From Chloroflexota bacterium (lineage in GTDB: Bacteria; Chloroflexota; Anaerolineae; Anaerolineales; Villigracilaceae): a stretch of DNA of 64,000 bases. Position 1 is the first letter of the stretch; every line of letters begins with the position of its first letter. Position numbers and translations under genes: made by a program. The stretch covers positions 3,207 through 67,206 of the forward strand of contig JBMOMN010000036.1 in NCBI GenBank assembly GCA_049324115.1. Direction: 5' to 3'. Below are positions 34,572 through 52,989 of the stretch, piece after piece. Below the pieces are notes generated by a model. The model was not told the DNA's origin, searched no databases, and saw only the letters and a program-made list of their open reading frames with translations.

Positions 34572-34740
34572 CTGGGCAAGGCTTTTAACCGCGGTGAATG
34601 TCCTTGCAAACAGGATATTAACCGCGAAGAAACGAAGCACGCGAAGGAAATCAAAAACTCCGTGCGCTCCGTGATCTCTGTGGTGCAAACTTACGTGTGA
34701 ATATGAGCATTTCACTGAAAAATTCCAAAAGGAGGAAGAC

Positions 34741-35511
34741 TTGAAAATCGTAGCCTGTATCAAACAAGTGCCCGACTCGGCTGCCAAAGTGGTGGCCCAG
34801 GACGGGCAGGTCTCGTGGGGCGATGCGCCGCTGGTCATCAACCCCTGGGACGAATTCGCCGTCGAAGCCGCGCTCCAGCAAAAGGAAGCCCACGGCGGCG
34901 AGGTGATCGCCGTCAGCATGGGCGGGGAGAGCGCCAAGGAAGCCCTCAAACACGCCCTGGCCATGGGCTGTGACTCGGCCATCCTGATCTCCGACCCGGC
35001 CCTCGGCGGCGTGGACACGCAGGGTACCGCCCGCGTCCTGGCCGCCGCGATCCAAAAGGTCGGCGGCGTGGACCTGGCCTTCTTTGGCCGCCAGGCCATT
35101 GACGGCGACGCCGGGATCACCCCGGCCCAGACCGCCCGCGTCCTCGGCTGGCCGATGCTCGGGCTGGCCGCGGTCATCAAGGTGGACGGCAGCAAGGTCA
35201 CGGTCGAACGCTCCATCGAAGAAGGCCGCCAGACCGTCAGCGCCGAGGCGCCGGCCGTCTTGAGCGTGGTCAAAGACTTCGGCGAGCCGCGCTACCCCTC
35301 GTTCATGGGCATCCGCAAAGCCTCCCGGGCCGACATCCCGGCCTGGACGCTGGCCGACCTGGGCATCAGCGCCCCGGCCCCGGTCGTCGCCTGGCCCGAA
35401 CTGATGAACCCGCCCAGCCGCGAAGTGGCCTGCGAGTTCATCACCGGCGGCAGCCCGGCCGAGATCGCCGAAAAGCTGGCCGACAAGATCATCGCGGAGA
35501 AAGTCCTATGA
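34741..35511 (+). CDS. etfB: Electron transfer flavoprotein subunit beta
   Basis: (TTG start) MKIVACIKQVPDSAAKV..., the typical EtfB N-terminus. Confidence 0.92.
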   Translation: MKIVACIKQVPDSAAKVVAQDGQVSWGDAPLVINPWDEFAVEAALQQKEAHGGEVIAVSMGGESAKEALKHALAMGCDSAILISDPALGGVDTQGTARVLAAAIQKVGGVDLAFFGRQAIDGDAGITPAQTARVLGWPMLGLAAVIKVDGSKVTVERSIEEGRQTVSAEAPAVLSVVKDFGEPRYPSFMGIRKASRADIPAWTLADLGISAPAPVVAWPELMNPPSREVACEFITGGSPAEIAEKLADKIIAEKVL

Positions 35512-36524
35512 ACACCTGGGTTTACATTGACCACTTCAAAGGCGAAGTCCTGCCTGCCTCGTGGGAAGCCATCGGCGCGGCCAAAGCCCTCGGCGGGGGC
35601 GTCACGGCCCTGGTCTTCGGCTCGGGCGTGGAAGCCGTCGCCAGGTCCGCGTTTGAGTTCGGTGCGGATGAAGCATTGGTGGCGGATGAGGCCGCCCTGG
35701 CCGACTACCGCGCCGAGGCTTTTGTCTCCACCCTGTCCGCTCTCGCGGCGGAGCGCAGCCCGGACCTGATCCTGCTCCCGACTACCACGCGTGGCCGCGA
35801 ACTGGCAGGCATGGCCGCCATAGACCTCGAAACCGGCGTGCTCGTGGACGTGATCGCCCTCGAACCGGATGGCGACAAGATCATGGCTACACGCCCAATC
35901 TACGCCGGGAAGCTGCTCGAAAAGACCGTCTGCAACGCCAAGCCGCAAATCATCACCCTGCGCGGACGGGCCTTCCCCAAGCCCGAGGCCCAGCCCGGCA
36001 AATCCGGCACGCTGACGAAGGTCGCGGCCAAAGCCGAGGCCAGGACCACGGTCGAAGGTTACAGCGCCGGTGAAGGCGGCGTCTCGCTGACCGACGCGGG
36101 CGTGATCGTCTCCGGCGGGCGCGGCACCTCCAACAATCCCGCCCTGTCCGCCCCCGGCGGCATGGACGAGAAGCAGGCCGAAATCTGGAAAGCCCAGGAA
36201 GGCTTCAAACTCGTCAGCGGGCTGGCAGGGGCGCTCGGCGCGGCCGTCGGGGCCTCCCGGGCCGCGGTGGACGCCGGGTACATCCCCTACGCCCACCAGG
36301 TCGGCCAGACCGGCAAGGTCGTCTCGCCCGATCTGTACATCGCCTGCGGCATCTCCGGCGCGATCCAGCACCTGGCCGGGATGCGCAACAGCAAGATGAT
36401 CGTCGCCATCAACAAGGACGCCGACGCCCCGATCTTCAAGGTAGCCCGCTTCGGCGTGGTCGGCGACATGCACCAGATCCTCCCTGCGCTGACCGAGGCC
36501 TTCAAGAAGAAGCTGGGCAAGTAA
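35508..36524 (+). CDS. etfA: Electron transfer flavoprotein subunit alpha
   Basis: 338 aa with a C-terminal FAD motif [19 protein letters not shown]. It overlaps the etfB stop by 4 nt. Confidence 0.92.
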
Positions 36525-38177: not shown

Positions 38178-38198
38178 AAGCCCCCGCAATGGGGGCTT
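38178..38198. terminator. Bidirectional intrinsic terminator
   Basis: AAGCCCCC-gcaat-GGGGGCTT, flanked by an A-run upstream and a T-rich tract downstream. It sits between the convergent MFS (+) and 57-heme cytochrome (-) genes. Confidence 0.7.
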
Positions 38199-38232: not shown

Positions 38233-41200
38233 TCAGTCTTCCCTGCCGGTCGGGTGACAGCTCAGGCAATCGCTGAAATCATCAATGCCCTCCTCGCGAT
38301 GCTTATTGGCTACCTCGCTCTGGTCGTGGCAGGTGTAGCAAGTCCAGCTTGAAAGGGTGCTCGGGTGGCAGTCACGGCAGGCATTCGCATCCCCGTGATT
38401 CGTCGGGAACGTGTGCGGACCCGTGAAACTGGCCGGCCGCCAAGCGGTGGTCGTGTGGCAGGAGGCGCAGTCCGTGCCGAACAGGCCCAGATGGAAAGCC
38501 GGGTCGGCGTGACAGGCCGAGCAGGCTGTGGGTGTGCCGTCGAACACGCCGTTGGCGTGGCATTGCTCGCAGGCCACGCTGACGTGCGCCCCGGTCAACG
38601 GGAAGGCCGAAAGGTTGTGGTCGAATGTGGCCGGTTTCCAGGCGGTGGTCGAGTGGCAGACTCCGCAGTTCGTGCCGTATTTGCCGCCGTGGCGGTCGTT
38701 ATCGGCGTGGCAGGCATAGCACAATGTCGGCGTTCCCTTGAATTTGAGATCGGTATGACATTCGGCGCAGGGCAGGCTGATATGCGCGCCGGTCAGCGGA
38801 AAGATGGAATTGTTGTGGTTGAAGGTGGACGATTCCCAGCCGCTGGTGGTGTGGCAGCTTTCGCAAGCCGTTCCGAGCGCGCCGCTGTGTGGATCGTCCA
38901 GGGTGTGGCAGGCGGAGCAAATCCTGGGCGTGCCTTTGAAGACCTGGTTGACGTGGCACTGGTCGCACTGGACCAGCGTATGTTTCCCGGTCAGCGGGAA
39001 AGCTGATTGGTTGTGATCGAATGAGGCGGGTTTCCAGCCGTTGGGGGTATGGCAGGTGGCGCAGAGCGTCCCCAACGCGCCGGCATGGGCGTCGTCGTCC
39101 AGGTGACAGGAGGCGCAGTCGGTGGGCGTGCCATCGAAGACCCCGTTGACGTGACAGCTTTCGCAGGCGACCGTGGCGTGCTTGCCCAACAACTGGAAGG
39201 CGAATTTGGAATGGTCCACCTGGGCCAGTTCCCAGCCGCCCGGCGTATGGCAGGACTCGCACTGGGTCCCGAAGGAACCGGCGTGGGCGTCGTCGTCCAG
39301 GTGACAGGAGACGCAGTCGGTCGGCGTGCCGTCGAAGACGCCGTTGACGTGGCAGGTCTCGCAGGCGACCGTGGTGTGTTTGCCTTCGAGCGGGAAGGCG
39401 AATTGGGAGTGGTCCACCTGGGCCAGTTCCCAGCCGTCGGGCGTGTGGCAGGACTCGCACTGGGTCCCGAAGGAACCGCCGTGGGCGTCATCGTCGAGAT
39501 GGCAGGAGACGCATTCGGTCGGCGTGCCGTCGAAGACCCCGTTGACGTGGCAGCTTTCGCAGGCGACCGAGGTGTGTTTGCCTTCGAGCGGGAAGGCGAA
39601 TTGGGAGTGGTCCACCTGGGCCAATTCCCAGCCATCGGGCGTGTGGCAGGACCCGCACTGGGTCCCGAACCCGCCGGCATGGGCGTCATCGTCGAGATGG
39701 CAGGAGACGCATTCGGTCGGCGTGCCGTCGAAGACCCCGTTTACGTGGCAGCTTTCGCAGGCGACGTTCCCGTGGCGGCCAAGCAACTGGAAGTCAAATT
39801 TGGAGTGGTCCACGCGGGCGAGTTCCCAGCCTTCGGGAGAATGGCATGCTCCGCAATCGGCGCCGAACTGGCCGTTGTGACGGTCGTCGTCCAGGTGGCA
39901 GGCCGAGCAATTCTGCGGGGCGGAGCGCAAGTCGTCCAGGGTGCGGGCGCCGAGGTGGCAGCGGAAGCAGGCCAACCCGTCGTGTTGGCCCGCCAACGGG
40001 AACGGGACCAGGCCATGGTCGAAGTTCGAGCCGTGCGAATCCAGCCCGTCGTGGCAGGCCAGGCAATCCGTCCAGAAGGTCAGGATGTGGGCCTGGGTGA
40101 ACATGAAGTCCACAGCGAGGTGACAGGTGGCGCAGGCCAATTGGTTGAAGGGTGGGGCATAGCCGGACGTATGGCAATCCTGGCAGGCGAAGGCCGAACC
40201 GTCGGCCTGGGTCTGGTGGGCTTTCAGCGAAAAGGCCAGGGTTTCGTGGTCGAAGTTGGCGGGTTTCCAGCCGGAGGGGGTATGGCATACGCCGCACTGG
40301 TCGCCCAGGCCGCCGTCGTGGGCATCGTCCTGGAGATGACAGGCGCTGCAAACCGTCGGCGTGCCCTTGAAGATCCCCCCGGCATGGCAGCTTTCGCAGG
40401 CGGCCAGGGCGTGCTGCCCTTCGAGCGGGAAGGCGAACGTGGAGTGGTCCACCTGGGCCAGTTCCCAGCCGTCGGGGGTGTGGCAGACGGCGCAGTCGGT
40501 CCCGAACCCGCCGTTGTGCTGGTCGTCACCCGAATGACAGGCGAAACAAGCTGTCGGGGTGATGGTGTACCTGCCGTCGGCGTGGCAGCTCCCGCAGGCG
40601 ACCGCGGCGTGTTTGCCCGTCAGCTTGAAATCTGCCGAATTGTGGTCGAAGCTGGCCGGTTTCCAGGCGGTCGTTGAATGGCAGGTGGAGCAATCCACGT
40701 CGAACGTCCCGGCGTGGAAGTCGTCCTTCTGGTGGCAGACGCGGCATTCCTGCGGCGCGGCGCGCAGGTCGGCCAGGCTGCGGGCGCCGAAATGGCAGCG
40801 GGAACAGGACGCCTGGGCGTGACTCCCGGTCAGCTGGAAGGCGACCGCGTTGTGGTCGAAGGCCGCGCCGTGCGAGTCCAGCCCGTCGTGGCAGGCCAGG
40901 CAGTTGGTGCGGAAGTCGGAGATGTGCTGCTGGGTGAAGGCTAGGTCCACCTCGAAGTGGCAATCGGCGCAGGAGGTCTGGTTGAACGGCGGGGCGTAGC
41001 CCGTGACGTGGCAGTCCCGGCAGGCATACGCGGATCCGTCGGGTTTGGCGGTGTGGGCGGCCAGGGAGAAGCTGGTGGTGTTGTGGTCGAAAGGCGCGGC
41101 GGGACTCCAACCCTGGGGCGTGTGACAGGTCCCGCACTGGCTGCCGAGCGACCCGGCGTGGCCGTCGTCCTGGGCGTGGCAGGAGACGCAGTCCATCGGC

Positions 41201-42318
41201 GTCCCCTTGAAAACTCCCCCGGCGTGACAGCTTTCACAGGCAAGGTTGGCGTGTTTGCCCTCGAGCGGGAAGGCGAACTGCGAATGGTCCACGGCCCGTT
41301 CCCAGCCTTCGGGCGTATGGCAGGCCCCGCAATCGGGGCCGAAAGCGCCGTCGTGCTTGTCATCCTGCGCGTGACAGGCAACGCAATCGGACGGGATTCC
41401 CCGGTAAACGTGATTGACGTGACAGGCCTCGCAGGCTACGGCTTCGTGCTTGCCGACCAGTTTGAAATCCGCCAGGTTGTGGTCGAACTGGGCCGATTTG
41501 GTCCAGCCGTTGGGGGTATGGCACATCCCGCACTTCACGCCGAAACGGCCTTCGTGGGGATCGTCGGCCAGGTGGCAGGCGGAACATTCCTGCGGGGCGG
41601 CGCGCAGATTGTCGAGGTTGCGGGCGTTGACGTGGCAGCCGCCGCAGGGAGTCAGGATGTGAAGTCCGGTCAGGGGGAATGGGACCAGGCCATGGTCGAA
41701 GGCCGCTCCGTAGGTGTCCAGCCCGTCGTGGCAGGCCAGGCAATCCGTCCAGAAGGTCAGGATGTGCTCCTCGGCAGCCACAGGGCTGATCGAAAGGTGG
41801 CAGTTGGCGCAGTCCCGCTGGTTGTAGGGAGGGGTATATCCGGCAGAGTGGCAATCCCGGCATTCGAAGGGAGTGCCGTCGAGGCGCAGCCGGTGGGCAT
41901 CCAGCGAAAAACCGAGCATCTCGTGGGGATTCCAGCCAGGCGGCATTTCGGTCAGGGAGGCCTCCGGCCCGTGATGCTCGGTGTGGCAGGCCAGGCAGTT
42001 GAGGTCCGGCTGGCTGAAGCGGACCAGGCTGTGCAGGCTGTTCGGCTGCTGGAGTTCTTCGCGGGTGTTCGTGTGGCAGTCCAGGCACCGCTCCCCCATC
42101 GTTTCGGTGCTCCAGGGGGCAGCGTGGCAACTCGAACATTCCTGGATCTGGTTGTGCGCGATGACGTTCCCCAGAGGCGGGCCGGCCTTGGCGCTCAAAT
42201 TACCGGGACTGAAAATTGCATTGTCTCCGGCAAAAGCGATACCGCTGATCGCAATGAAGCTGATGGCGGTAACAATGATCGAGTTAATCGAAAAGAAACC
42301 CTTGCGCCACGCCAGCAT
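38233..42318 (-). CDS. Giant membrane-anchored multiheme c-type cytochrome (about 57 CxxCH)
   Basis: 1361 aa with an N-terminal hydrophobic anchor/signal. I counted 57 CxxCH motifs by hand. The paired-CxxCH module CxxCH..DD.H.G.FG..C..CH...GW is repeated throughout. Confidence 0.92.
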   Translation of the reverse strand: MLAWRKGFFSINSIIVTAISFIAISGIAFAGDNAIFSPGNLSAKAGPPLGNVIAHNQIQECSSCHAAPWSTETMGERCLDCHTNTREELQQPNSLHSLVRFSQPDLNCLACHTEHHGPEASLTEMPPGWNPHEMLGFSLDAHRLRLDGTPFECRDCHSAGYTPPYNQRDCANCHLSISPVAAEEHILTFWTDCLACHDGLDTYGAAFDHGLVPFPLTGLHILTPCGGCHVNARNLDNLRAAPQECSACHLADDPHEGRFGVKCGMCHTPNGWTKSAQFDHNLADFKLVGKHEAVACEACHVNHVYRGIPSDCVACHAQDDKHDGAFGPDCGACHTPEGWERAVDHSQFAFPLEGKHANLACESCHAGGVFKGTPMDCVSCHAQDDGHAGSLGSQCGTCHTPQGWSPAAPFDHNTTSFSLAAHTAKPDGSAYACRDCHVTGYAPPFNQTSCADCHFEVDLAFTQQHISDFRTNCLACHDGLDSHGAAFDHNAVAFQLTGSHAQASCSRCHFGARSLADLRAAPQECRVCHQKDDFHAGTFDVDCSTCHSTTAWKPASFDHNSADFKLTGKHAAVACGSCHADGRYTITPTACFACHSGDDQHNGGFGTDCAVCHTPDGWELAQVDHSTFAFPLEGQHALAACESCHAGGIFKGTPTVCSACHLQDDAHDGGLGDQCGVCHTPSGWKPANFDHETLAFSLKAHQTQADGSAFACQDCHTSGYAPPFNQLACATCHLAVDFMFTQAHILTFWTDCLACHDGLDSHGSNFDHGLVPFPLAGQHDGLACFRCHLGARTLDDLRSAPQNCSACHLDDDRHNGQFGADCGACHSPEGWELARVDHSKFDFQLLGRHGNVACESCHVNGVFDGTPTECVSCHLDDDAHAGGFGTQCGSCHTPDGWELAQVDHSQFAFPLEGKHTSVACESCHVNGVFDGTPTECVSCHLDDDAHGGSFGTQCESCHTPDGWELAQVDHSQFAFPLEGKHTTVACETCHVNGVFDGTPTDCVSCHLDDDAHAGSFGTQCESCHTPGGWELAQVDHSKFAFQLLGKHATVACESCHVNGVFDGTPTDCASCHLDDDAHAGALGTLCATCHTPNGWKPASFDHNQSAFPLTGKHTLVQCDQCHVNQVFKGTPRICSACHTLDDPHSGALGTACESCHTTSGWESSTFNHNNSIFPLTGAHISLPCAECHTDLKFKGTPTLCYACHADNDRHGGKYGTNCGVCHSTTAWKPATFDHNLSAFPLTGAHVSVACEQCHANGVFDGTPTACSACHADPAFHLGLFGTDCASCHTTTAWRPASFTGPHTFPTNHGDANACRDCHPSTLSSWTCYTCHDQSEVANKHREEGIDDFSDCLSCHPTGRED

Positions 42319-42412
42319 GAAGCCTCTCCTCGTCCAAAATTCATGCTTATTTTCACCAACATTATCAACTTTTATTGGACAACGTGTATGTCAGTTGCAT
42401 TGCAATATCAAA

Positions 42413-42433
42413 AAGCCCCCGTTGCGGGGGCTT
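42413..42433 (-). terminator. Hairpin/terminator between the 18-heme and 57-heme genes
   Basis: On the minus strand: AAGCCCCC-gcaac-GGGGGCTT followed by TTTGA. Confidence 0.5.
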
Positions 42434-42458
42434 CCGAATCTCTAGCAGCGAACGGTCG

Positions 42459-43904
42459 TCAATCGCCGCCTTCTTCTTCCCGGCCGGTGGGATGGCAGCG
42501 CAGGCAGTCTTCGAAATTGCCGATGCCTTCTTCGCGGTGTTCGCGGGCCGTTTCGCCCTGGTCGTGACAGGTGTAGCAGGTCCAGGTGTCGAGGGCCGAG
42601 GGGTGACAGTCGCGGCAGGTCTCGGCCCCTTCGTGGTTGACCGGGAACGGGTGCGAAGCGTTGTATTGGGCAGGCTGCCAGGCCGTGGTGGAATGGCAGG
42701 ATTGGCAATCCGTACCGAACAGGCCGGCATGATAAAGCGGGTCTTCGTGGCAGGAGACGCAGGCCGTGGCCGTCCCCTTGAATGTCTCGTTGACGTGGCA
42801 TTCTTCGCACTCCACCCGGGCGTGCGCCCCGGTCAGCGGGAAGTTGGAGCGGTCGTGGTCGAAAGTAGCCTCTTCCCAGTCTGACGGGTTGTGGCACGCG
42901 CCGCAGTCATCGCCGAACCGGCCGCCGTGTTCGTCATCGCCGCGGTGACAGTCCACGCAGGCCTGCGGCGTGCCCTTGTAGATGTCGTTGACATGGCACT
43001 CTTCGCACCTCACCTCGCGATGTTCGCCTTCGAGCTTGAAGGCGGACAGGTCGTGGTCGAAGGTGGCGGGGGTCCAGCCGTCTGGCGAGTGGCACTGGCC
43101 GCAGTCCTGGCCGAAGCGGGACTGGTGGGCGTCGTCTTTCAGGTGGCAGGCGGAACATTCCCGCGGGGTGTTCTTCAGGTCGTTCGAGGTGCGGGCGTCC
43201 AGGTGGCAGGCGGAGCACAGGGCCTCGTTGTGTTTGCCGGTCAGGGGGTAGCCGGTCGTGATGTGGCTGAATCCGCTCCCGTAGGTATCCAGCCCATCGT
43301 GGCAGGCCAGGCAGCCGGTCCCGACCCAGAGCAGGTGGGTTTGGGTGTAGACCGGGTCCATTTGACGGTGGCAGTCCTCGCACGCGCCGGCCTCGAAGAC
43401 GGTGATGTCGTCCGCATGGCAATCGGCACAGGTGAAGTCCTGCCCGTCCGAGCGTTGCGCGTGCCCCTTGAGGGAATAGCCCAGCATTTCGTGCGGAAAG
43501 CCCTCGCTGGTCAATTCGGTCAGGGAAGCCTGCGCCCCGCGGTGTTCGGGGTGGCATTCCCGGCATTGGATGTTCTGGTTTTTCTGGAGCATCGCGCCGT
43601 GCAGGCCGCTTGTTCCGGCGACCTGCACCGAAATGCCGGAGTGGCACTCGACACACAGGTCGTTCATTCGGCTGGTGGCCCAAAAAGCGGGGTGGCAGCG
43701 GCTACATTCTTTGGCGAGGGACGCGTGGGTATTCACCCCGCCCAGGGTCTCGCCCGGCTGGGCGTTCAGTTCCCCGGGGTTGAACATCAGCCCGCCCCTG
43801 GCAAGAGCCAGGATGGTGATGACTGCCAGCGTGACCGTAGTCGCGATCAACGCCGTGCCGGATATACACCCCAATCGCCTGCGTTCCTGCATAGTTGCCT
43901 CCAA
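42459..43904 (-). CDS. Membrane-anchored multiheme c-type cytochrome (18 CxxCH)
   Basis: 481 aa with an N-terminal TM segment. I counted 18 CxxCH motifs by hand. It uses the same module family as its neighbours. Confidence 0.92.
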   Translation of the reverse strand: MEATMQERRRLGCISGTALIATTVTLAVITILALARGGLMFNPGELNAQPGETLGGVNTHASLAKECSRCHPAFWATSRMNDLCVECHSGISVQVAGTSGLHGAMLQKNQNIQCRECHPEHRGAQASLTELTSEGFPHEMLGYSLKGHAQRSDGQDFTCADCHADDITVFEAGACEDCHRQMDPVYTQTHLLWVGTGCLACHDGLDTYGSGFSHITTGYPLTGKHNEALCSACHLDARTSNDLKNTPRECSACHLKDDAHQSRFGQDCGQCHSPDGWTPATFDHDLSAFKLEGEHREVRCEECHVNDIYKGTPQACVDCHRGDDEHGGRFGDDCGACHNPSDWEEATFDHDRSNFPLTGAHARVECEECHVNETFKGTATACVSCHEDPLYHAGLFGTDCQSCHSTTAWQPAQYNASHPFPVNHEGAETCRDCHPSALDTWTCYTCHDQGETAREHREEGIGNFEDCLRCHPTGREEEGGD

Positions 43905-44079
43905 GTTGATGGCAGGGCGCCCGCAATGACCTCTAAAGTATGGAGTCTGAATCCTGGATCTGCCCCACCGTTAAATCATACCAACATTTTCAAAAGTTAC
44001 AAACAGGCTTCGCTGCAAGCCGGTTCGATGAGGCGTCGCGCGGCGGGTGAGGCCGGCACCGCCTGGATAAATACCCGGC

Positions 44080-44108
44080 GAGCAGGGCTGCCTCGCGCAG
44101 CCCTGCTC
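44080..44108 (-). other. 12-bp-stem GC hairpin in the 240-bp spacer between the 30-heme and 18-heme genes
   Basis: GAGCAGGGCTGC-ctcgc-GCAGCCCTGCTC. There is no clear U-tract, so it could be an attenuator or an RNA-processing/stability element. Confidence 0.4.
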
Positions 44109-44143
44109 ATCAGTGTGACCGAACTTGCCGGGCCAGGCCGGGG

Positions 44144-46351
44144 TTAATCCCAACCTTTGGGGTTATGGCATTTGCCGCAATTGGTGCCCTTCTTGCCGTT
44201 GTGCTCGTCGTCGTTCTTGTGACAGGCGTAGCAGTCGTTCGGGGTGCCCTGGAACTTGCCGTTCTTATGGCATTTTTCACAGGAGGCCTTGGCGTGCTTG
44301 CCTTCCAACGGGAAGCCGGTCTTGTTGTGGTTGAAGTTGGTGTCGCCCCAGCCGGACGGGTTGTGACATTGGCCGCAGTTCGTGCCGTTATTGCCTTTGT
44401 GCTTGTCGTCGTTCTTGTGACAGGCATAGCAGATCATCGGCGTGCCGGCGAATTTGCCATTCTTATGACAACTATCGCACTTGACCTTGGCGTGCTTGCC
44501 ATCCAGTGGGAATTTGGTCTTGTTGTGGTTGAAATTAGCCCCACCCCAGCCGTTGGGGCTGTGGCAGGAGGCGCAGTTGGTCCCGAACTGGCCTTTGTGT
44601 TTGTCGTCGCCCTTGTGGCAGGCGTAACAGTTCTGGGGCGTGCCCTGGAACTTGCCGCCGGAATGGCATTTTTCGCAGGCGACTTTTGCGTGTTTCCCGA
44701 CCAACGGGAAGGAGGACTTGCTGTGGTCGAAGGTCGCGTCGCTCCAGCGGGTTGGCTTGTGGCAGGCTCCGCAGTCGGTACCGTTCGCGCCTTTGTGCTT
44801 GTCGTCCTGCTTGTGGCAGGCGTAGCAGGTCTGCGGCGTGCCCTTGAATTTGCCGCCAACGTGACACTTCTCGCAGGCTACGTTGGCATGTGAGCCAACC
44901 AGTGGGAACCCAGACTTGTTGTGGTCGAAGGTCGCGTCGCTCCAACGGGTCGGCTTGTGGCAGGTTCCACAGTCCGTGCCGAACTGGCCATTGTGCTTGT
45001 CTTCCTGCTTGTGGCAGGCGTAACAGGTCTGCGGTGTGCCCTTGAACTTGCCGCCAACGTGGCATTTTTCGCAGGCTACATTGGTGTGTGAGCCAACCAG
45101 CGGGAATCCCGACTTGTTGTGGTCGAAAGTCGCGCCCTTCCAGGTGGATGTGCTGTGACAGGTCCCACAGTCCTTGCCGAACTGGCCGTTATGGTTGTCG
45201 TCCTTTTGGTGACAGGAATAACAGTCCTTGGGCGTGCCCTGGAAGACGTTGTTCTTGTGACAGTCCTCGCACTGAACGCTTTGGTGGGCGCCGGTCAGCT
45301 TGAAAGCGGCCAGGTTGTGGTCGAAATCCACGTCGCCCCAGCCGGAGGGGTTGTGGCAGGCGCTACAGTCGGCGCCGAAACGCCCGTCGTGTTTATCCTT
45401 CTCTTTATGGCACGAGAAACAGTCCGCCGGTGTGCCCTGGTAAACGCCGTTGACGTGGCAGTCTTCGCAGGCTACATCCGCGTGTTTCCCTTCCAGTTTG
45501 AAGACGACCAGGCTGTGGTCGAAGTCGGCGGGTTTCCAGCCGTCGGTGGTGTGACAGCCCTCGCAGGAGGCCCCGAACCGCCCGGCGTGGGGATCGTTGT
45601 CGAGGTGGCAGCCGGCGCAGTCGGTGGGGGTGTTCTGCAAATCGTCGGCGGAATGGGCGTCAATGTGACAGGTGGAGCACAGGACCTCTGTATGTTTGCC
45701 GGTCAGTCCGAAATCGGTGTTTTGGTGGTCGAACGTATCGCCGTAGCTGTCAACCCCGTCGTGGCAGGCCCGGCAGTCGGTCCCGACCCAGAGAATGTGG
45801 GCCTGGGTGAAGACCACGTCCATTTGACGGTGGCAGGTCTCGCAGTTCGCGGGATCGAAGACGGAGATATCCTGCCCGTGACAATCCGAGCATTCGAAGC
45901 GGTTCCCGTCGGATCGGGTGGTATGTCCCTTCAACGAAAAGCCGAGGGCGGTGTGCGGGAAGGTCTCGATGTCCAGGATGGTGAGCGGCGCCTCGGCCCC
46001 CTGGTGTTCGGGGTGGCAGTTCCGGCATTCGAAGCTGGCATCCGCATTTTGGATCGCGCCGTGCATCGAACTCAGGTCCGCCGTTTGTTCGAGAATATCC
46101 GTGTGGCAGTCCATACAGCGGGCCGACATCTTCTTGAACGACCAGATCGGCGCGTGACAAAGTCCGCACTCGCCGCCCGTCTCGGCATGGGAGGTAAAAC
46201 CGCCGAGCGCGGGGCCGGCCTGGGCATTCAACGGGCCTGGGCTGAACATGGAATTACCGCTTAACAATGTCAGCCCGACAATCGCCGTGATCGTGATGAT
46301 CGCAGCAACCGATGCCGATGCAGTAAAACAGCCTAAACCATTGCTACGCAT
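44144..46351 (-). CDS. Membrane-anchored multiheme c-type cytochrome (30 CxxCH)
   Basis: 735 aa with an N-terminal TM segment. I counted 30 CxxCH motifs by hand. The C-terminal modules are Lys-rich. Confidence 0.92.
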   Translation of the reverse strand: MRSNGLGCFTASASVAAIITITAIVGLTLLSGNSMFSPGPLNAQAGPALGGFTSHAETGGECGLCHAPIWSFKKMSARCMDCHTDILEQTADLSSMHGAIQNADASFECRNCHPEHQGAEAPLTILDIETFPHTALGFSLKGHTTRSDGNRFECSDCHGQDISVFDPANCETCHRQMDVVFTQAHILWVGTDCRACHDGVDSYGDTFDHQNTDFGLTGKHTEVLCSTCHIDAHSADDLQNTPTDCAGCHLDNDPHAGRFGASCEGCHTTDGWKPADFDHSLVVFKLEGKHADVACEDCHVNGVYQGTPADCFSCHKEKDKHDGRFGADCSACHNPSGWGDVDFDHNLAAFKLTGAHQSVQCEDCHKNNVFQGTPKDCYSCHQKDDNHNGQFGKDCGTCHSTSTWKGATFDHNKSGFPLVGSHTNVACEKCHVGGKFKGTPQTCYACHKQEDKHNGQFGTDCGTCHKPTRWSDATFDHNKSGFPLVGSHANVACEKCHVGGKFKGTPQTCYACHKQDDKHKGANGTDCGACHKPTRWSDATFDHSKSSFPLVGKHAKVACEKCHSGGKFQGTPQNCYACHKGDDKHKGQFGTNCASCHSPNGWGGANFNHNKTKFPLDGKHAKVKCDSCHKNGKFAGTPMICYACHKNDDKHKGNNGTNCGQCHNPSGWGDTNFNHNKTGFPLEGKHAKASCEKCHKNGKFQGTPNDCYACHKNDDEHNGKKGTNCGKCHNPKGWD

Positions 46352-46384
46352 GGTAGCCTCCTGATACCTCTAAGGTTAGGGTGA

Positions 46385-46936
46385 CTATCGAAGTAGGGTG
46401 GCGTAATACAACGCTGCGCCAATGTGGATGAACGCGGCTGTGAACAGGGCCATTCCGATGGGGATGTGAATGGTGTGCCACAGGGCCATCAACCGCCGGG
46501 TGTGGGCGATCATTTCGGGCGAAACGATTGCGCCCACTTCAAGTCCGTCTGCCGTGCGCGGGATGCGGGTGTAAATGTACCGGCCGATAAAGCCGCTGAT
46601 CACGATGATGACCGTGAACAGGGTCGTCACACCGGCCAGGCCGTTGAATTTCCACGAGGTGTGCAACAGGACCATGAAAGGCCCGACCAGGCCGGTGAAG
46701 ATGTGGAATTGCAGCCATGCCGACATCCGGCCCCAGCGCGCCGAACGGGACCGCTTGCGCAGGCTGTAGAGCAACTCGGTCATGAGCATGAGGATGAAGC
46801 CGAAAATCCCGAGGCTGTGACCGAAAAGGTCGCTGGCAGGAGGGATGCCCCGGGTCAGGAAGACGATCGCGCCATAAATCCCGGCAATGAGGCTGCAAGC
46901 AATGAAAGCCAGCCATAATTCGTAGTTAGTGCGCAT
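46385..46936 (-). CDS. 5-TM membrane protein with two H-x13-H helices (predicted di-heme b-type cytochrome)
   Basis: 183 aa. TM3 is FHIFTGLVGPFMVLLHT and TM5 is IHIPIGMALFTAAFIHI, each with His residues 13 apart. It overlaps the upstream flavoprotein gene by 11 nt. Confidence 0.8.
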   Translation of the reverse strand: MRTNYELWLAFIACSLIAGIYGAIVFLTRGIPPASDLFGHSLGIFGFILMLMTELLYSLRKRSRSARWGRMSAWLQFHIFTGLVGPFMVLLHTSWKFNGLAGVTTLFTVIIVISGFIGRYIYTRIPRTADGLEVGAIVSPEMIAHTRRLMALWHTIHIPIGMALFTAAFIHIGAALYYATLLR

Positions 46937-48236
46937 ATTGGGTACTCCATTTTGTCCAGAAATTGGCGATCAGGTCTGCAATGGGCGCTTTGGGCGAAAG
47001 GAGCGCATCCCGGATCGAGGAAATATCCACCTGGGAAATGATTATTTGCTGCAACGGGCGGGACAGGGTCTGGTCGCCCATGACCACGGCCCCCAGCAGG
47101 GAGTTTTGTCCGATCAACAGGCGCAGCCGGTTGACGTCGAACCCGGACTGGGCCGCGATCGCATCCGGCAGGGAACGCCAGGTCTCGCTGTCGCCCCGGG
47201 CAATGCCGACCAGGTCTGCGTCCCGGCCGCTGCCCACCGTGCCGATGATGGTGGTGGTCAGCCCCGCCAGGCGGGTCACGTTGAACGGCGCGATCTTGCG
47301 GTAAGTCCGGTTTTGCCCGGCCATGTTCAAGCCGGCCACGTACCCCTGCTCACGCGCCGGGTTCCACAGGCTGTCCAACATGGCCTTGCCGGTCATGGGG
47401 TCGTAAACCTGGGCCACGTCGCCCGCGGCAAATATATTGGGGAGGTTGGAACGCAGGCCGTCGTCCACCATGATGCCGCGGTCCACCGTCAGGCCGGTTT
47501 CACGCGCCAGGGTGGTGCGGGGCTTGATCCCGATCCCATAGCCGACCAGGTCGCACTTCAACTGGCGGCCGTCTGCCAGGCGCACGCCTTTCACCTTGCC
47601 GCGCTTGCCCAGCACTTCCACCGCTTCGGCGTGTTTGTGGATCTGCACGCCCTCGTGCCTGAGACGTTCTTCCACGACGCGGCTTTCATCTTCGTCGAGG
47701 ACGTTGCTCCAGTAACGGTCGCCGCGCATCAGGTAATGCACCCGCACCCGGTTGGCGGCCAGGCCCTCGACGATTTCGAGAGCGGTGATCCCGCCGCCAA
47801 TGACCACTGCCGTGCGCGCCCGGCGGGCCATTTTCACGATCCGCCGGGCATCCTCGAGATGGTCCAGCTTGAAGACGCCTTCCAGGTCTGCCCCCGGAAT
47901 GGTCAAAGGCGTGGCTTTGGAACCCACAGCCACCAGCAGCCGGTCGTACCCGATCGTCCCGTTTTGCTGTAAAACCACCAGCTGGGCCTCCGGGTTGATC
48001 TTGACCGCCCGGTCGCGGAAATAGTGGATGTGCATCCGCTGGTAATCTGCCCGCTTGTACGGGAAGAGGTGGATTTCGGCCAGCTCACCGGTCAGGTAAT
48101 ACGCCAGGCCGGGGCGGGAATAATACGCGTGCGGGTCGTCGCCGATGAGCACGATCTCGCCGGCCGGGTCCACGCTGCGGATGGCTTCCATAGCCGCGAT
48201 TCCAGCCACACCGGTACCAAGAATGACGTATCGCAT
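46926..48236 (-). CDS. FAD/NAD(P)-binding pyridine-nucleotide-disulfide-family oxidoreductase
   Basis: The start is trimmed to MRYVILGTGVAGIAAMEA. A second Rossmann fold is AVVIGGGITALE, followed by GD motif FAAGDVA. The ATG shares a base with the ferredoxin stop. Confidence 0.88.
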   Translation of the reverse strand: MRYVILGTGVAGIAAMEAIRSVDPAGEIVLIGDDPHAYYSRPGLAYYLTGELAEIHLFPYKRADYQRMHIHYFRDRAVKINPEAQLVVLQQNGTIGYDRLLVAVGSKATPLTIPGADLEGVFKLDHLEDARRIVKMARRARTAVVIGGGITALEIVEGLAANRVRVHYLMRGDRYWSNVLDEDESRVVEERLRHEGVQIHKHAEAVEVLGKRGKVKGVRLADGRQLKCDLVGYGIGIKPRTTLARETGLTVDRGIMVDDGLRSNLPNIFAAGDVAQVYDPMTGKAMLDSLWNPAREQGYVAGLNMAGQNRTYRKIAPFNVTRLAGLTTTIIGTVGSGRDADLVGIARGDSETWRSLPDAIAAQSGFDVNRLRLLIGQNSLLGAVVMGDQTLSRPLQQIIISQVDISSIRDALLSPKAPIADLIANFWTKWSTQYAH

Positions 48237-48499
48237 TATCTTCTTCCCTCGAACAGGTCGGTGTGGGCAAAATGCAAGACCCCGCGCGGGCAACGCGCCA
48301 CACACTCTCCGCAAGTCAGGCACTCGCTGCGCTTGACGGGTTCGCCCAGCCAGGCATGGTGGCGCACATCAATTCCGATTGGACAGTTATACGAACACAC
48401 ACCGCATTGAACACAACGGCCCGCCTCCGGCACAACGTGCCCCGAGGTCAAGGCCGTGCGGTGTTTGGCTTCAGAGATGAACAATTCTTCAATCGCCAT
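48236..48499 (-). CDS. 2x[4Fe-4S] ferredoxin
   Basis: 87 aa with CVQCGVCSYNCP and CLTCGECVARCP. Confidence 0.88.
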   Translation of the reverse strand: MAIEELFISEAKHRTALTSGHVVPEAGRCVQCGVCSYNCPIGIDVRHHAWLGEPVKRSECLTCGECVARCPRGVLHFAHTDLFEGRR

Positions 48500-48605
48500 T
48501 AGCAGGTTTCCTCACAATGCTTAGTCGAATTGTCTTATTAAAAGTTGCTCATTCAGTCTCATGTGATTATCATACAAAAGTCAGGGGGTGTCCTTACAAT
48601 TCCCC

Positions 48606-48641
48606 AATAAAAAAACAACAGGGCTGCGCTGGGCAGCCCTG
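48606..48641 (-). terminator. Intrinsic terminator after cspA
   Basis: On the minus strand: CAGGGCTGC-ccagc-GCAGCCCTG followed by TTGTTTTTTTATT. Confidence 0.8.
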
Positions 48642-48663
48642 CACTTTCTCGCAAGCAGTTTCC

Positions 48664-49784: not shown

Positions 49785-51452
49785 ATGGTTGCCCTTTTGG
49801 GGATTATTATATACAATCAAAGGGACATGGACGAGCAACGTTTCCACCAAAAACCCTGGTTCTTCTTTTTCATAACCATTTTAGGTTTGGGGATACTGTA
49901 TTTACTCGTCGCACCGACCAAGGATACCATCCTGAAAACCCTGTGGGCCAACAAAGGGGACTACTTTCTCTGTCTTGGAGGCTTCCTGCTCTGGCTGGCC
50001 TTCTTCGCCCAATTCGTCCTGCCGGTGCGGAAATTCCGTGACCGCCAAAAAATATTCGACAGACTGCTGAACTCGGTCCTGGGGGTACGCGGCCCTGCGA
50101 TTTTCATCGAGAACGGCAACCCGCGCCTGAGCCATGAAGAAGAGAAACGCAAAGGAGCGGGGGTGATCTGGCTGGATACGGCCAGCGGGGCGGTCTTGCG
50201 CGTGGCGACCAAATTTACCCGCGCCGTCGGCCCCGGGGTGGTCTTCACCAACGCGGGCGAAAAACTGGCCGCCAGCGTTGACCTGCACACGCAGAACCAG
50301 CCCATCGGCCCAAGCGAGAAAGACGATCCCTTTGCCAAAGAGAAGAAAGAGGGCCAGAGCGAAGAAGAGTTCATGGCATGCATGAACCGTCGCGACGATA
50401 CCATTGGCCTCACCCGCGACGGGATCGAGATCGTCCCCAATATTTCGGTCATGTTCAGGATCGAGGCCGACCCGGCCAAAGACAAGGAGCCGGGTTCCCG
50501 CTTCGGCTACAACGAGGACTCCGTTTTCCGCGCCATCGCCGGGCAAGGCATCAACCCGGACAAATCCAACGACTCGGCCCGTTACCGGGTAGCCTGGAAC
50601 GAACTCCCCGCCCGGCTGGCAGCCGACCTGTGGCGCGAATACCTGAGCAAGTTCACCCTGGCAGAACTCTTCGACCCCATCCGGCCAATCCCTGAGATGA
50701 ACGCAGCCGACATCACGGCCACCCGGTTATCCAGGCTGCCCCAGCCGGCCAAAGCTGAATTGCCGGAGCCGATCGGCATAAGCCGGACCTTGTACCAGTT
50801 CTATCAGGTCATCAACGGCTGGCTGGAAAAACTGATCGCCCTTTGCGAAAAGGAAAAATCTCCGCCCCCGAAAAAGGAATCGGCGCAGGAGCCTAAAACC
50901 GAAGGCAAAGCCCCGGAAGGTGAAAAACCGACGACTGAAACCGCCATGCAGGTCATCGCCCGCATGGTCAACGAGCGGCTGCAAAATGAATTCGTGCAGG
51001 GGATCAACGAATTTGGCGAATGGGAATCGGTTTTCGATTCCCAAAGGAGCCGGGAGTTCGAAATTCTCAGAAATCGCGGGATAAGGGTCAATCGCGTCAC
51101 CATCGCCAACCTGCGTTTCAGGCCCGATGTGGACAAACGCATTGTGCAACAGTTCACGGCAAACTGGCTGGATAACGCTCGCCGTGAACGCGACCGCATC
51201 GAATCCGAACGCAGCCTGTCCGAGCACGAGGGCCGTGAACGCGCCCTCGTGCGTTACACTACCGCGCTCAGCCGGGAAATCTTGAGGTCCCGCCCGGCCA
51301 GCCCGGAGGCGGCCCTGCAAGCCCTGCTGCGAGGCAGCCGCAGCGAATTGATCCGCGACAACAACCTGAGGCGACGCGTCAGCAACGAAGTGGAAGACCT
51401 GACCGCGCTGCTCCAGTGGGTGGATAAGGTGATAGATGGACAAGAGCCGTAA
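49785..51452 (+). CDS. Membrane protein with an SPFH/band-7-like core and a coiled-coil tail (function unknown)
   Basis: Two N-terminal TM helices, then GPGVVF...ASVDLHTQ...GLTRDGIEIVPNISVMFRI, a pattern reminiscent of the SPFH fold. The alternative start ATG 49827 (MDEQ) is possible. Confidence 0.7.
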   Translation: MVALLGIIIYNQRDMDEQRFHQKPWFFFFITILGLGILYLLVAPTKDTILKTLWANKGDYFLCLGGFLLWLAFFAQFVLPVRKFRDRQKIFDRLLNSVLGVRGPAIFIENGNPRLSHEEEKRKGAGVIWLDTASGAVLRVATKFTRAVGPGVVFTNAGEKLAASVDLHTQNQPIGPSEKDDPFAKEKKEGQSEEEFMACMNRRDDTIGLTRDGIEIVPNISVMFRIEADPAKDKEPGSRFGYNEDSVFRAIAGQGINPDKSNDSARYRVAWNELPARLAADLWREYLSKFTLAELFDPIRPIPEMNAADITATRLSRLPQPAKAELPEPIGISRTLYQFYQVINGWLEKLIALCEKEKSPPPKKESAQEPKTEGKAPEGEKPTTETAMQVIARMVNERLQNEFVQGINEFGEWESVFDSQRSREFEILRNRGIRVNRVTIANLRFRPDVDKRIVQQFTANWLDNARRERDRIESERSLSEHEGRERALVRYTTALSREILRSRPASPEAALQALLRGSRSELIRDNNLRRRVSNEVEDLTALLQWVDKVIDGQEP

Positions 51453-52989
51453 CGAACCGAAATCCCTCACCGAGCAGGAAGGGCAGCGCCTGCGCGCCAA
51501 TTTCGTGCGCCTGATGGACTGCCTGCTGAACAAGATCTTCGCCCTCACCCGGAACACCGCCCGCGCCCGCCAGACCGTGACCTGGTTCCTGCTGTTCTTC
51601 CTGGGATTCCTGATCGGGCTGAAAATCACCAACCTGGCGACCTGGCTGCAATACATCCGGGAAGTGTTTACAGCCTTATTCCAATTGTCCTACACGGCAT
51701 TCGGGGGTGCCGTGGCCAAGCTGATTACGACGATCTTCAACACTTTTTTTGCGCCCGAAACGCTCAGGTACCTGCCCCCGTTGCTGCTGCCCTTCCTCCT
51801 GGCATGGCAATTCGCGGCGATGTACCTGGCCGACATTTTCGAGCTGACCCATGCCGGCATTGCCCGCAGTTTCATCATGCGGGCTGCTTTTGGCGCACGC
51901 TACGAACGGATCCACATCCGGGAGGGACAGATCGCCGAAGAAGACCGCGACTCCCCGGTGTACCAGATCGGCGGCCCGGGGCTGGTCCAGATCGAGCTGG
52001 ATTCGGCTGCCCTGTTCGAAGACGCGGACGGCCGCCCGCGCGTGCAGGGGCCGACGAACGACCAGCCGTCGGGCTTCCTCGAACTGACCGGGTTCGAACG
52101 CCTGCGCGCCGCTTACGACCTGCGCAACCACTACACCGATTCCCTGACCGTCAACAACCGGAGCCTGGATGGGATCAAAATCGAGGCCAAGGATGTGCGC
52201 CTGGTTTACAGTGTCTGGCGCGGCCCCGGCTCGCCTGCGCCGACGCTTGAACGTCCCCATCCTTTCCATCCGCAAGCCATCGCAACCTTGACATACAACC
52301 AGGCCTGTAAAGTTGCTGAAGCCGGGAAACCCTCGGCTTGCGGCCCATGGCATCCCGCCATGACCGGCATCATCCGGGGCGAGCTAAGCCGGTTCATCGC
52401 CGAACACAGGCTGGTGGAATTCCTTGCCAGCGTCAATATGCCCGAAAGACAACGGGCGATGGAACACCTGAACATCCTCGCCGGACGGGTCGAACAGTTG
52501 GCAGAAACAGACGTGGACCTGCCGAGGGAGGAGGAGCAGATCCCCATCCCGGAGCATTTGACGACCCGCCCGGAGATCAGCAATATGTTCGTCCGCTTCG
52601 TCGAAGACTTCAACCTGATCCCCAGCCGGTTCGCCGAAAGTGCCCAAAGACGCGGCCTGGAATTGCACTGGATCGGGATCGGCGCGTGGCACCCGCCTGA
52701 TGAAGTGGTCGCAGAACAGCACCTGGAAGCCTGGAAACTCAACCGCGAAAATGTCTCTCGCGGCGCAGAAAGGGCAATGAACGGGTTGAGCAACGAGGCC
52801 TTTTTACAGGAAATGATGCGCCTCGTCCATGAAGTCCCATTCGAGTCGCTGCGGCGGGCGCGCGCCAGATTCCAACGCTCGAACGATTTCGTCAGGCAAG
52901 TTGTTTTGGATTACCGGGAACTCATCCGTGAAGCCCTGCGGCGCATACGTGCGAACGCGGAAAGGCAGAGGAATGTCAACCGATTCTAA
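51436..52989 (+). CDS. Membrane protein, distant paralog of the upstream SPFH-like protein (function unknown)
   Basis: Three TM helices, then IHIREGQI...GGPGLVQIELDSAALFE...SLDGIKIEAKDVRLVYSV. It overlaps the upstream gene by 17 nt. Confidence 0.7.
   Translation: MDKSRNEPKSLTEQEGQRLRANFVRLMDCLLNKIFALTRNTARARQTVTWFLLFFLGFLIGLKITNLATWLQYIREVFTALFQLSYTAFGGAVAKLITTIFNTFFAPETLRYLPPLLLPFLLAWQFAAMYLADIFELTHAGIARSFIMRAAFGARYERIHIREGQIAEEDRDSPVYQIGGPGLVQIELDSAALFEDADGRPRVQGPTNDQPSGFLELTGFERLRAAYDLRNHYTDSLTVNNRSLDGIKIEAKDVRLVYSVWRGPGSPAPTLERPHPFHPQAIATLTYNQACKVAEAGKPSACGPWHPAMTGIIRGELSRFIAEHRLVEFLASVNMPERQRAMEHLNILAGRVEQLAETDVDLPREEEQIPIPEHLTTRPEISNMFVRFVEDFNLIPSRFAESAQRRGLELHWIGIGAWHPPDEVVAEQHLEAWKLNRENVSRGAERAMNGLSNEAFLQEMMRLVHEVPFESLRRARARFQRSNDFVRQVVLDYRELIREALRRIRANAERQRNVNRF

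Follow-up and report, generated by a model that had tools for sequence, protein, structure and literature searches.

We analyzed a 64,000-nucleotide stretch of DNA from a Chloroflexota bacterium (GenBank assembly GCA_049324115.1, contig JBMOMN010000036.1, positions 3,207 to 67,206; hereafter the window), in which a first-pass annotation made from the letters of the DNA had singled out a block of genes as a candidate chain for exporting electrons from the cell. Open reading frame (ORF) listing and translation revealed that the block comprises six co-directional genes on the minus strand, which encode a ferredoxin, a flavoprotein, a membrane protein that is a putative di-heme cytochrome b, and three multiheme cytochromes c (Table 1). 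The features that the first-pass annotation had named were all present, each where it had been placed. Our main subject is the cassette made up of the first four genes, which end with the cytochrome c of 30 hemes.

These four genes are tightly packed in the window. The TAA stop of the ferredoxin gene and the ATG of the flavoprotein gene have one base (A) in common at 48236, the flavoprotein and membrane-protein genes overlap by 11 nt, and a 33-nt gap precedes the 30-heme gene, all as described at first pass; the ribosome-binding site claimed for this gap was found as AGGAGG. The longest ORF of the flavoprotein begins at a GTG at 48323, and the ATG at 48236 is favored by homologues of 435-439 aa. 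For the 18-heme gene, the ATG at 43892 is likely the true start. The promoter-like site ahead of the ferredoxin gene lies downstream of the terminator hairpin of a cold-shock gene (48618-48642; -19.7 kcal/mol, followed by a U tract). Both hairpins that had been reported downstream of the 30- and 18-heme genes exist, and a U tract follows only the second of them; the first may be a partial terminator or a transcript-stabilizing element. The 18- and 57-heme genes each have promoter-like or terminator signals of their own. Rfam and tRNA scans detected no RNA elements in the block.

Table 1. Features of the six-gene block in the order of transcription; positions are those of the window.
Feature	Position	Strand	Basis or remark
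Promoter-like site 5′ of ferredoxin gene	48566..48594	-	Consensus scan, 9/12 matches; consensus match only
2x[4Fe-4S] ferredoxin, 87 aa	48236..48499	-	Pfam Fer4_9, Fer4_10, Fer4_7
FAD/NAD(P)H flavoprotein, 436 aa, soluble	46926..48236	-	Pfam Pyr_redox_2, 2.3e-52
Five-helix membrane protein, putative di-heme cytochrome b, 183 aa	46385..46936	-	Conserved His and AlphaFold2 (AF2) model
Codon of H78, membrane protein	46703-46705	-	
Codon of H92, membrane protein	46661-46663	-	
Codon of H157, membrane protein	46466-46468	-	
Codon of H171, membrane protein	46424-46426	-	
30-heme cytochrome c, 735 aa	44144..46351	-	30 CxxCH; Pfam Cytochrome_C7, c3_2, CIII
Nine-heme base module of 30-heme protein	45542-46351	-	Conserved
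Hairpin 3′ of 30-heme gene, no U tract	44080..44108	-	-28.3 kcal/mol, z = -5.3
Promoter-like site 5′ of 18-heme gene	43975..44002	-	TTGTAA, 16 nt, TATGAT; consensus match only
18-heme cytochrome c, 477 aa from ATG 43892	42459..43892	-	Longest ORF 42459-43904
Intrinsic-terminator-like hairpin and U tract 3′ of 18-heme gene	42413..42433	-	-18.5 kcal/mol
57-heme cytochrome c, 1361 aa	38233..42318	-	57 CxxCH
Terminator-like hairpin and U tract 3′ of 57-heme gene	38178..38198	-	-19.1 kcal/mol

Conservation of the four-gene cassette

To place the cassette among other genomes, we scanned 185,579 species-representative genomes, one per species, with the closer of our alignments of the membrane protein (A2) as the query, and found a close relative in 320 of them. 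From these 320 genomes, 80 loci were listed, and gene order was counted in the 65 species-level genomes with enough flanking sequence. The order ferredoxin, flavoprotein, cytochrome b, multiheme cytochrome was retained in 65 of 65, which answers the call of the first-pass annotation for a check of synteny in relatives. The gap between the ferredoxin and flavoprotein genes was zero or negative in 62 of 63 cases (median -4 nt), the overlap being 1 nt in the window and 4 nt in nearly all relatives. The gap between the cytochrome b gene and the multiheme gene had a median of 10 nt, with the multiheme gene lying within 40 nt in 63 of 64 genomes. Chance adjacency of the cassette genes is ruled out by these counts. 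Median identity to the proteins of the window was 67% for the ferredoxin, 63% for the flavoprotein, 74% for the cytochrome b and 48% for the N-terminal base module of the multiheme cytochrome.

Nearly all of the 80 listed loci are titled Anaerolineales, Anaerolineae, Chloroflexota or "uncultured Chloroflexia". They include Candidatus (Ca.) Villigracilis, Brevefilum fermentans, UTCFX1 and CFX6, and two are titled Herpetosiphon sp. and Syntrophothermus sp. Among clusters at 90% identity, the membrane protein had 5,058 matches at E ≤ 0.001; the best 120 of these are 73-95% identical to it, and the few that bear names come from metagenome-assembled genomes (MAGs) of Anaerolineae, Anaerolineales and Anaerolineaceae. 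An exhaustive search put the size of the family at 2,497 clusters at 50% identity.

The cytochrome end of the locus is variable, with one to three cytochrome genes and 9-47 hemes in the relatives. A single 17-18-heme protein, like the second cytochrome of the window, is the commonest form directly 3′ of the cytochrome b gene, and the combination of a 30-heme with a 17-18-heme protein was seen again in several lineages. The closest relative found, Anaerolineales bacterium UBA5796 (GCA_002418215.1), has a membrane protein 95% identical to that of the window and the same flanking genes, and the 57-heme gene is absent from it. In loci L007, L008 and L010, the major facilitator superfamily (MFS) gene stands directly 3′ of the 18-heme gene. 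What had been presented at first pass as a block of six genes thus holds as a conserved unit for the first four, whereas the 18- and 57-heme genes, with their own promoter-like or terminator signals and, for the latter, its absence from the closest relative found, are paralogous add-ons. Two complete four-gene cassettes stand in tandem in one Chloroflexota MAG (L015, 1993-11170), the first of them with a 41-heme cytochrome.

Among distant homologues of the cytochrome b (34-61% identity), the multiheme gene is found immediately 3′ wherever downstream DNA is available. The full four-gene cassette appears again in L098/L099 and L100/L101, at identities of 39-47% for the cytochrome b and 45-46% for the flavoprotein, and in L091 the C-terminus of a flavoprotein is encoded upstream of the cytochrome b gene. 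Four other lineages (L090, L092, L094 and L096) have a pair of cytochrome b and multiheme genes with no ferredoxin or flavoprotein gene adjoining. The four pair-only lineages and the full but diverged cassettes together suggest that the obligate core consists of the cytochrome b and the multiheme cytochrome, and that the ferredoxin-flavoprotein pair is, on these comparisons, an ancient and frequent but non-universal add-on.

Other genes were also seen repeatedly or in distinctive company at these loci. An extracytoplasmic function (ECF) sigma factor, DUF5667/DUF5666 proteins and a MacB-type ABC exporter adjoin the cytochrome b and multiheme genes both in close relatives (L001-L003, 11750-17570) and in a distant lineage without ferredoxin and flavoprotein (L096, 441-5604). 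In the low-GC, distant L090 (1335-8876), the pair is flanked by genes of heme biosynthesis (hemA, hemC and a fused TP_methylase/HEM4 gene, cobA/hemD-like) and followed by a gene for a DUF362 protein that could be an alternative cytoplasmic partner. Two large ORFs of 555 and 517 aa in the window (49785-52989, plus strand), which have no Pfam match, are kept beside the cassette in L004 and L007.

The membrane protein as a putative di-heme cytochrome b

The membrane protein has no name in any source. Its AF2 model has a mean predicted local distance difference test (pLDDT) score of 90.3 and consists of five helices (residues 2-28, 37-62, 71-92, 99-123 and 140-181). Two His pairs with H-x13-H spacing lie on helix 3 (H78 and H92) and helix 5 (H157 and H171). 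In an alignment of 34 homologues, H78 and H92 never vary, and conservation of H157 and H171 is 90% or more. The four His are thus kept down to 34% identity, as a di-heme assignment made at first pass had demanded. The loop that joins helices 2 and 3 holds two further residues that are the same in all of these homologues, R60 and K61.

Profile searches placed the membrane protein near, but not within, a known family. Its match to Pfam Ni_hydr_CYTB (PF01292; E = 7.3e-6) scores 26.3 bits against a gathering cut-off of 30.1, and 20 of the 34 family members match the same profile, at best with 8.2e-8. By these scores, the protein is a distant, below-threshold relative of prokaryotic cytochrome b561 (PF01292) and no clear member of it. 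The Ferric_reduct profile found no match in the window protein and matched 5 of the 34 family members (best E = 0.002). Sequence and profile searches of PDB chains found no solved relative, and NCBIfam returned one spurious match and nothing else. A Foldseek comparison of the model with the PDB gave nothing at E ≤ 0.001, a search that a helical bundle makes uninformative; the best relevant match was eukaryotic cytochrome b561, with a template-modeling (TM) score of 0.44.

The orientation of the protein can be predicted from its relatives. N-terminal zinc-ribbon extensions, which are present in some homologues, and the basic loops place the N-terminus inside and the C-terminus outside. With this topology, the heme held by H78 and H157 would lie near the cytoplasm and that held by H92 and H171 near the outer face.

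An insertion of about 90 aa in a cytoplasmic loop was considered as a marker of lineages that lack the ferredoxin and flavoprotein and was ruled out, since in L098 and L100 the insertion occurs together with the full cassette. A comparison by eye (alignment A1) of the cytoplasmic-loop residues of cytochromes b with and without cytoplasmic partners revealed no discriminating pattern.

The ferredoxin and the flavoprotein

The ferredoxin is of the generic 2x[4Fe-4S] type. Its two CxxCxxCxxxCP motifs are both at least 90% conserved among 76 orthologues, and it has neither a transmembrane segment nor a signal peptide.

The flavoprotein displays the features of ferredoxin/rubredoxin-NAD(P)+ reductase-type enzymes: two dinucleotide-binding domains, sites for FAD and NAD(P), and no redox-active disulfide. 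It contains a single Cys, which leaves no redox disulfide and hence indicates that the protein is not a disulfide reductase. Its GxGxxG motifs are conserved in 76 orthologues. In the NAD(P) domain of all of these, R171 and R174 are kept and beta-2 ends without an acidic residue; by analogy, these characters lean towards a preference for NADPH. The closest solved relative is AorC (8c0z_E; 9e-46 over residues 1-356), which is the FAD subunit of a tungsten aldehyde oxidoreductase (PDB 8c0z) and links the polyferredoxin chain of that enzyme to NAD+. The NCBIfam models that matched were the N-terminal part of NirB (1e-56; 192.9 bits against a cut-off of 578) and PadH (7.7e-56; 189.7 bits against an equivalog cut-off of 475), and by these cut-offs the flavoprotein has no equivalog-level identity to a characterized enzyme.

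The multiheme cytochromes c

The three cytochromes contain 30, 18 and 57 CxxCH motifs, whereas shuffled versions of the same proteins average 0.41, 0.20 and 0.74, and no other ORF in the window has two or more. Pfam assigns all three to the c3/c7 type. Given about one extra His per heme, the hemes appear to be bis-His ligated. The HmcA model of NCBIfam scores 24-42 bits against these proteins (E-value 9.4e-10), far short of its cut-off of 400. Pfam found no match to NapC/NirT (PF03264) in any of the three at E ≤ 0.01, and a profile of their base module gave a marginal, partial match to NrfH (E = 0.011 over 45 residues). The block holds neither a separate NapC/NirT- or CymA-type gene nor, according to the Pfam scan and the gene neighborhood, an outer-membrane porin partner, in agreement with the first-pass annotation.

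A base module of about 270 aa is common to the three cytochromes, with pairwise identities of 41-51%: that of the 18-heme protein is 51% identical to that of the 30-heme protein, and that of the 57-heme protein is 41-42% identical to the others. Across 35 sequences, the module has 9 invariant CxxCH motifs and 9 further invariant His. Each protein begins with one hydrophobic stretch of about 23-25 residues, which bears out the N-terminal anchors proposed at first pass with one qualification: AxA-like sites are also present in the 18- and 57-heme proteins, where cleavage is possible. Small or polar residues are conserved along the anchor helix (T20, G26 and G32).

Directly before the anchor helix, on the cytoplasmic side, lies an RLGC motif in which L6, G7 and C8 are at least 90% conserved (alignment A3). 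It is found in the 30-heme protein (46328-46351, minus strand) and the 18-heme protein (43866-43892, minus strand) and not in the 57-heme protein, and its Cys is the one cysteine outside CxxCH motifs. A lipoprotein signal was considered for this motif and ruled out, as the Cys has no hydrophobic segment ahead of it and the residues around it are not those of a lipobox.

Tandem repeats of 198 nt, each encoding 66 aa and three hemes, occur at 44195-45244 in the 30-heme gene and at 38927-39902 in the 57-heme gene with 77-85% identity. These repeats point to a recent expansion of the heme wire and agree with the variable heme numbers of Anaerolineales cytochromes (PMC7399161). A different element, a C-terminal cap module of about 75 aa (...WTCYTCHD...EH...CxxCHP...), ends the 18-heme protein (42459-42683, minus strand) and the 57-heme protein (38233-38457, minus strand), between which it is 64% identical. 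It is lacking in the 30-heme protein and present in the distant relatives L091, L093, L094 and L098. The cap module may be the exit end of the heme wire.

Proposed electron path and competing explanations

Considered together, the cassette, which is conserved across Anaerolineales, probably moves electrons to the cell surface, with two hemes in the membrane joining an iron-sulfur/flavin module in the cytoplasm to a cytochrome c outside. More specifically, we propose, at what we judge to be an even chance, that the products of the first four genes form one membrane redox complex leading from NAD(P)H to an anchored heme wire outside and serving as an electron-disposal valve. In such a complex, NAD(P)H, and by preference perhaps NADPH, would reduce the FAD of the soluble flavoprotein, a step in keeping with the family to which that protein belongs. 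The FAD would then reduce the two [4Fe-4S] clusters of the translationally coupled ferredoxin, as the overlap of the two genes and the AorC/AorA and PadH/PadF pairs suggest. The ferredoxin, or the flavoprotein and ferredoxin as a pair, would dock to the cytoplasmic face of the cytochrome b and reduce its inner heme (H78, H157), a contact proposed from gene linkage. Given the H-x13-H spacing and the predicted topology, electrons would cross the membrane from the inner to the outer heme (H92, H171). From there they would enter the nine-heme base module, which the N-terminal helix would hold near the cytochrome b, consistent with the adjacency of the two genes in every lineage examined, and would travel along three-heme tandem units (18 to 57 hemes here) to an external acceptor. 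Candidate acceptors are Fe(III) or Mn(IV) minerals, humics, a syntrophic partner and oxygen species. The 18- and 57-heme paralogues would serve as alternative or additional wires on the same docking module. Because electrons that move outward leave protons inside and create no proton gradient, the likely role of the cassette in fermentative or facultative Anaerolineales would be that of a redox valve for the regeneration of NAD(P)+, not that of a coupling site.

This proposal is supported by the conserved order of the four genes, their tight spacing, the duplication of the cassette in L015, the diverged cassettes of L098 and L100 and the flavoprotein C-terminus encoded in L091. It is further supported by the conservation of the His ligands, the confident AF2 model, the zinc-ribbon extensions that put the N-terminus of the cytochrome b inside, the kinship of the flavoprotein with AorC and PadH and its lack of a redox-active cysteine pair, and by the conserved anchor-helix residues and cytoplasmic RLGC motif of the multiheme cytochrome. 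Additional support comes from Ca. Brevefilum fermentans, whose genome was reported to encode no electron-transport-chain complexes and no oxidase, but a single polyheme cytochrome, proposed to function in direct interspecies electron transfer (PMC5481317): a MAG assigned to this organism has the cassette (L070). In a bolder form of the proposal, which we advance tentatively and rate somewhat short of even, NAD(P)H would drive the export of electrons across the membrane with no part played by quinone, as if an NADPH oxidase had been split into separate proteins and connected to a cable of hemes. The cassette would be the main means of reductant disposal of abundant fermentative Anaerolineales, delivering electrons to minerals, humics or methanogenic partners without a respiratory chain, and three-heme repeats would be gained and lost rapidly, which would tune how large the wire is.

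Several points weigh against the path from NAD(P)H to the heme wire. We infer the contact of the ferredoxin and flavoprotein with the cytochrome b from gene linkage, and the direction of electron flow and the terminal acceptor are likewise points that we infer. The gap between the flavoprotein and cytochrome b genes is looser than the others (median 39 nt, maximum 690 nt), and the Foldseek search with the cytochrome b model turned up no structure of significant similarity. Most members of PF01292, the nearest named family, are cytochromes b that react with quinone; the window encodes cytochrome bd, which makes a quinone pool probable; and the four pair-only lineages imply that the core can obtain electrons in another way. 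The NOX-like (NADPH oxidase-like) export chain of the first-pass annotation is retained in its logic, as NAD(P)H, iron-sulfur clusters, two b hemes and a heme wire fit the parts, but not as a statement of kinship with NOX or ferric reductases, given PF01292 as the best match and the Pyr_redox_2 fold. Its further claim of a quinone-independent route is weakened by the same cytochrome bd and pair-only lineages. None of the outcomes that the first-pass annotation had listed as refuting its reading was observed.

These points lend weight to a competing explanation, in which the cytochrome b is a menaquinol:multiheme-cytochrome oxidoreductase like CbcL/CbcBA, and the ferredoxin and flavoprotein are either an accessory that reduces quinone through the inner heme or serve a separate cytoplasmic role. 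It would account for the pairs that lack cytoplasmic genes and for the best profile match, since PF01292 is the family of FdnI, HyaC and CybB-type cytochromes b. Quinol should be available, as cydAB and cydDC lie in the same window, and respiratory chains have been reported in many Anaerolineae MAGs (PMC11653643; PMC11748557). Less easily explained on this basis are the linkage of the ferredoxin and flavoprotein to the pair in all 65 genomes and in deeply diverged cassettes, the duplication of the four-gene unit as a whole in L015, and the retention of the cassette by the Ca. Brevefilum fermentans MAG despite the reported lack of electron-transport complexes (PMC5481317). No quinone-site motif was identified. 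We regard quinol oxidation as unlikely, though it is the strongest of the competitors.

Electrons might instead flow inward, as presumed for Tmc/Hmc, from external low-potential donors (hydrogen or formate via c3-type cytochromes, a cathode or a partner cell) through the b hemes to ferredoxin and NAD(P)+. All cofactors are reversible in principle, the cytochromes are of the c3/c7 type with a weak, far below-cut-off similarity to HmcA, and cathodic electron transfer has been shown for a Chloroflexi isolate (PMC5808234). Such flow would, however, oppose both the low potential of NAD(P)H and the inside-negative membrane potential, the partner in the cytoplasm is of another type than HdrD/CCG, and no gene for a periplasmic hydrogenase or formate dehydrogenase adjoins the cassette in any locus examined; we consider it improbable. 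We give still less credence to the possibility, raised at first pass, that the N-terminal hemes of each anchored cytochrome oxidize quinol directly in the manner of NrfH, NapC or CymA, which would make the cytochrome b dispensable for electron input. A single N-terminal helix with hemes directly after it and the marginal NrfH match are in its favor, but neither the Pfam scan nor the base-module profile comparison gave support at the level of the family. In the base module, there is an invariant extra His for every one of the nine hemes, which suggests that all are bis-His ligated and that none is left open as a quinol site. The gene of the cytochrome always comes directly after that of the cytochrome b.

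Genomic and metabolic context of the window

The genes neighboring the block encode a cold-shock protein, a PHP protein, an MFS transporter and an electron-transfer flavoprotein (ETF). Just past the MFS gene that borders the block, an acyl-CoA dehydrogenase and ETF beta and alpha are encoded on the plus strand (32995-36524), and a formate-tetrahydrofolate ligase is encoded at 58650-60653 (plus strand). Together, these genes fit a fermentative or acetogenic-type metabolism that yields excess reductant. A respiratory islet at 385-8988 (plus strand) comprises genes for a 478-aa Pyr_redox_2 flavoprotein, which is possibly an NDH-2-type enzyme, an Rrf2 regulator, CydA, CydB and a fused CydDC-type ABC transporter of 1195 aa, and indicates a quinone pool and oxygen tolerance in the organism.

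Elsewhere in the window, a 762-aa protein encoded at 23130-25418 (minus strand) joins a KAP-family P-loop NTPase to an FGE-sulfatase (formylglycine-generating-enzyme-like) domain. The segment at 62144-63923 (minus strand), which encodes a DprA-like fragment, a PIN-domain protein and a DUF4325 (STAS-like) protein, has a third-position GC content of 0.55-0.62 compared with about 0.8-0.9 elsewhere and may be a mobile or defense islet.

Significance

Anaerolineales rank with the most abundant bacteria of anaerobic digesters, of anammox and activated-sludge plants, and of aquifers and sediments. Very large multiheme cytochromes have been noted in this order repeatedly, in reports that give no link of these cytochromes to metabolism (PMC7399161; bioRxiv 10.1101/2021.08.23.457424; PMC5481317); heme numbers that vary are on record in the first two. 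The four-gene unit offers a concrete and testable answer to how abundant fermenters feed their giant cytochromes. In the literature open to full-text search, which excludes subscription-only articles, we found no description of the cassette or of a link between ferredoxin, flavoprotein and cytochrome b, in line with the impression at first pass that the system is not a described one. If the direct route from NAD(P)H is true, it would constitute a new way of electron export for single-membrane bacteria, add an uncharacterized family of di-heme cytochromes b to the known transmembrane electron carriers and account for possible electron sharing with methanogens. If the quinol route is true instead, the cassette would still represent a new family of quinol:cytochrome c oxidoreductases.

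Comparison with known systems

NOX and MsrQ/Fre likewise use a cytoplasmic NAD(P)H flavoenzyme to feed two stacked b hemes across the membrane, with His pairs 14 residues apart on helices 3 and 5 as in the cassette. Two His pairs 12-13 apart are a feature of NOX that the membrane protein shares, but they also occur in other di-heme cytochromes b and are therefore non-discriminating. The flavin domain of NOX is of the FNR-like FAD_binding_8/NAD_binding_6 type, whereas the flavoprotein described here is a separate polypeptide with Pyr_redox_2/Pyr_redox domains and a glutathione-reductase-type fold. The five-helix membrane protein is not a member of the NOX/MsrQ family, its relatives matching Ferric_reduct weakly in 5 of 34 cases; an extra 2x[4Fe-4S] ferredoxin is interposed; and the proposed acceptor is a multiheme cytochrome c instead of oxygen or MsrP.

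In CbcL and CbcBA of Geobacter, too, a membrane di-heme cytochrome b of the PF01292 type has a multiheme cytochrome c as its partner, either fused to it or encoded beside it, and supplies extracellular electron transfer. These are proposed quinol oxidases without cytoplasmic partners (PMC6295460), whereas an NAD(P)H flavoprotein and a ferredoxin are co-encoded here, the cytochrome c has its own anchor, and the cytochrome b reaches PF01292 only below threshold. A survey of CbcL reported no homologue in Chloroflexi (PMC6295460). TmcABCD and HmcABCDEF of sulfate reducers also combine a c3-type cytochrome outside, a membrane cytochrome b and an iron-sulfur protein in the cytoplasm, with no requirement for quinone. 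Their cytochrome b has been described as NarI-like. Their cytoplasmic partner is an HdrD-like CCG protein where the cassette has a ferredoxin and an NAD(P)H flavoprotein, and Pfam and NCBIfam scans found no CCG-domain or HdrD match in the six proteins of the block. The two systems differ as well in the inward direction presumed for Tmc/Hmc and in the HmcA score of the cassette cytochromes, which is far below the family cut-off.

For the cytoplasmic half, the nearest parallels are AorC/AorA and PadH/PadF (phenylglyoxylate dehydrogenase), in which a homologous flavoprotein is likewise paired with a ferredoxin-like [4Fe-4S] protein; these pairs serve soluble oxidoreductases, whereas the genes of the pair described here adjoin those of a membrane cytochrome b and a cytochrome c. 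Type B di-heme succinate:quinone oxidoreductases and fumarate reductases also consist of a flavoprotein, an iron-sulfur protein and a five-helix di-heme anchor, the same architecture as in the cassette. They differ in that the cassette would use NAD(P)H and not succinate, with cytochrome c and not menaquinone as the proposed distal acceptor, and the Pfam scan found no match of the membrane protein to the Sdh_cyt family. In Listeria, flavin-based extracellular electron transfer (Ndh2, EetA/B and PplA) allows a single-membrane fermenter to dispose of electrons from NADH, the role that we propose for the cassette, but does so with unlike parts, namely quinone and a flavinylated lipoprotein, and without hemes. 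Judged by its profile matches, the cassette is not a member of the NOX or NapC/NrfH families; its outer half is like CbcL/CbcBA, and its inner half is like AorC/AorA or PadH/PadF.

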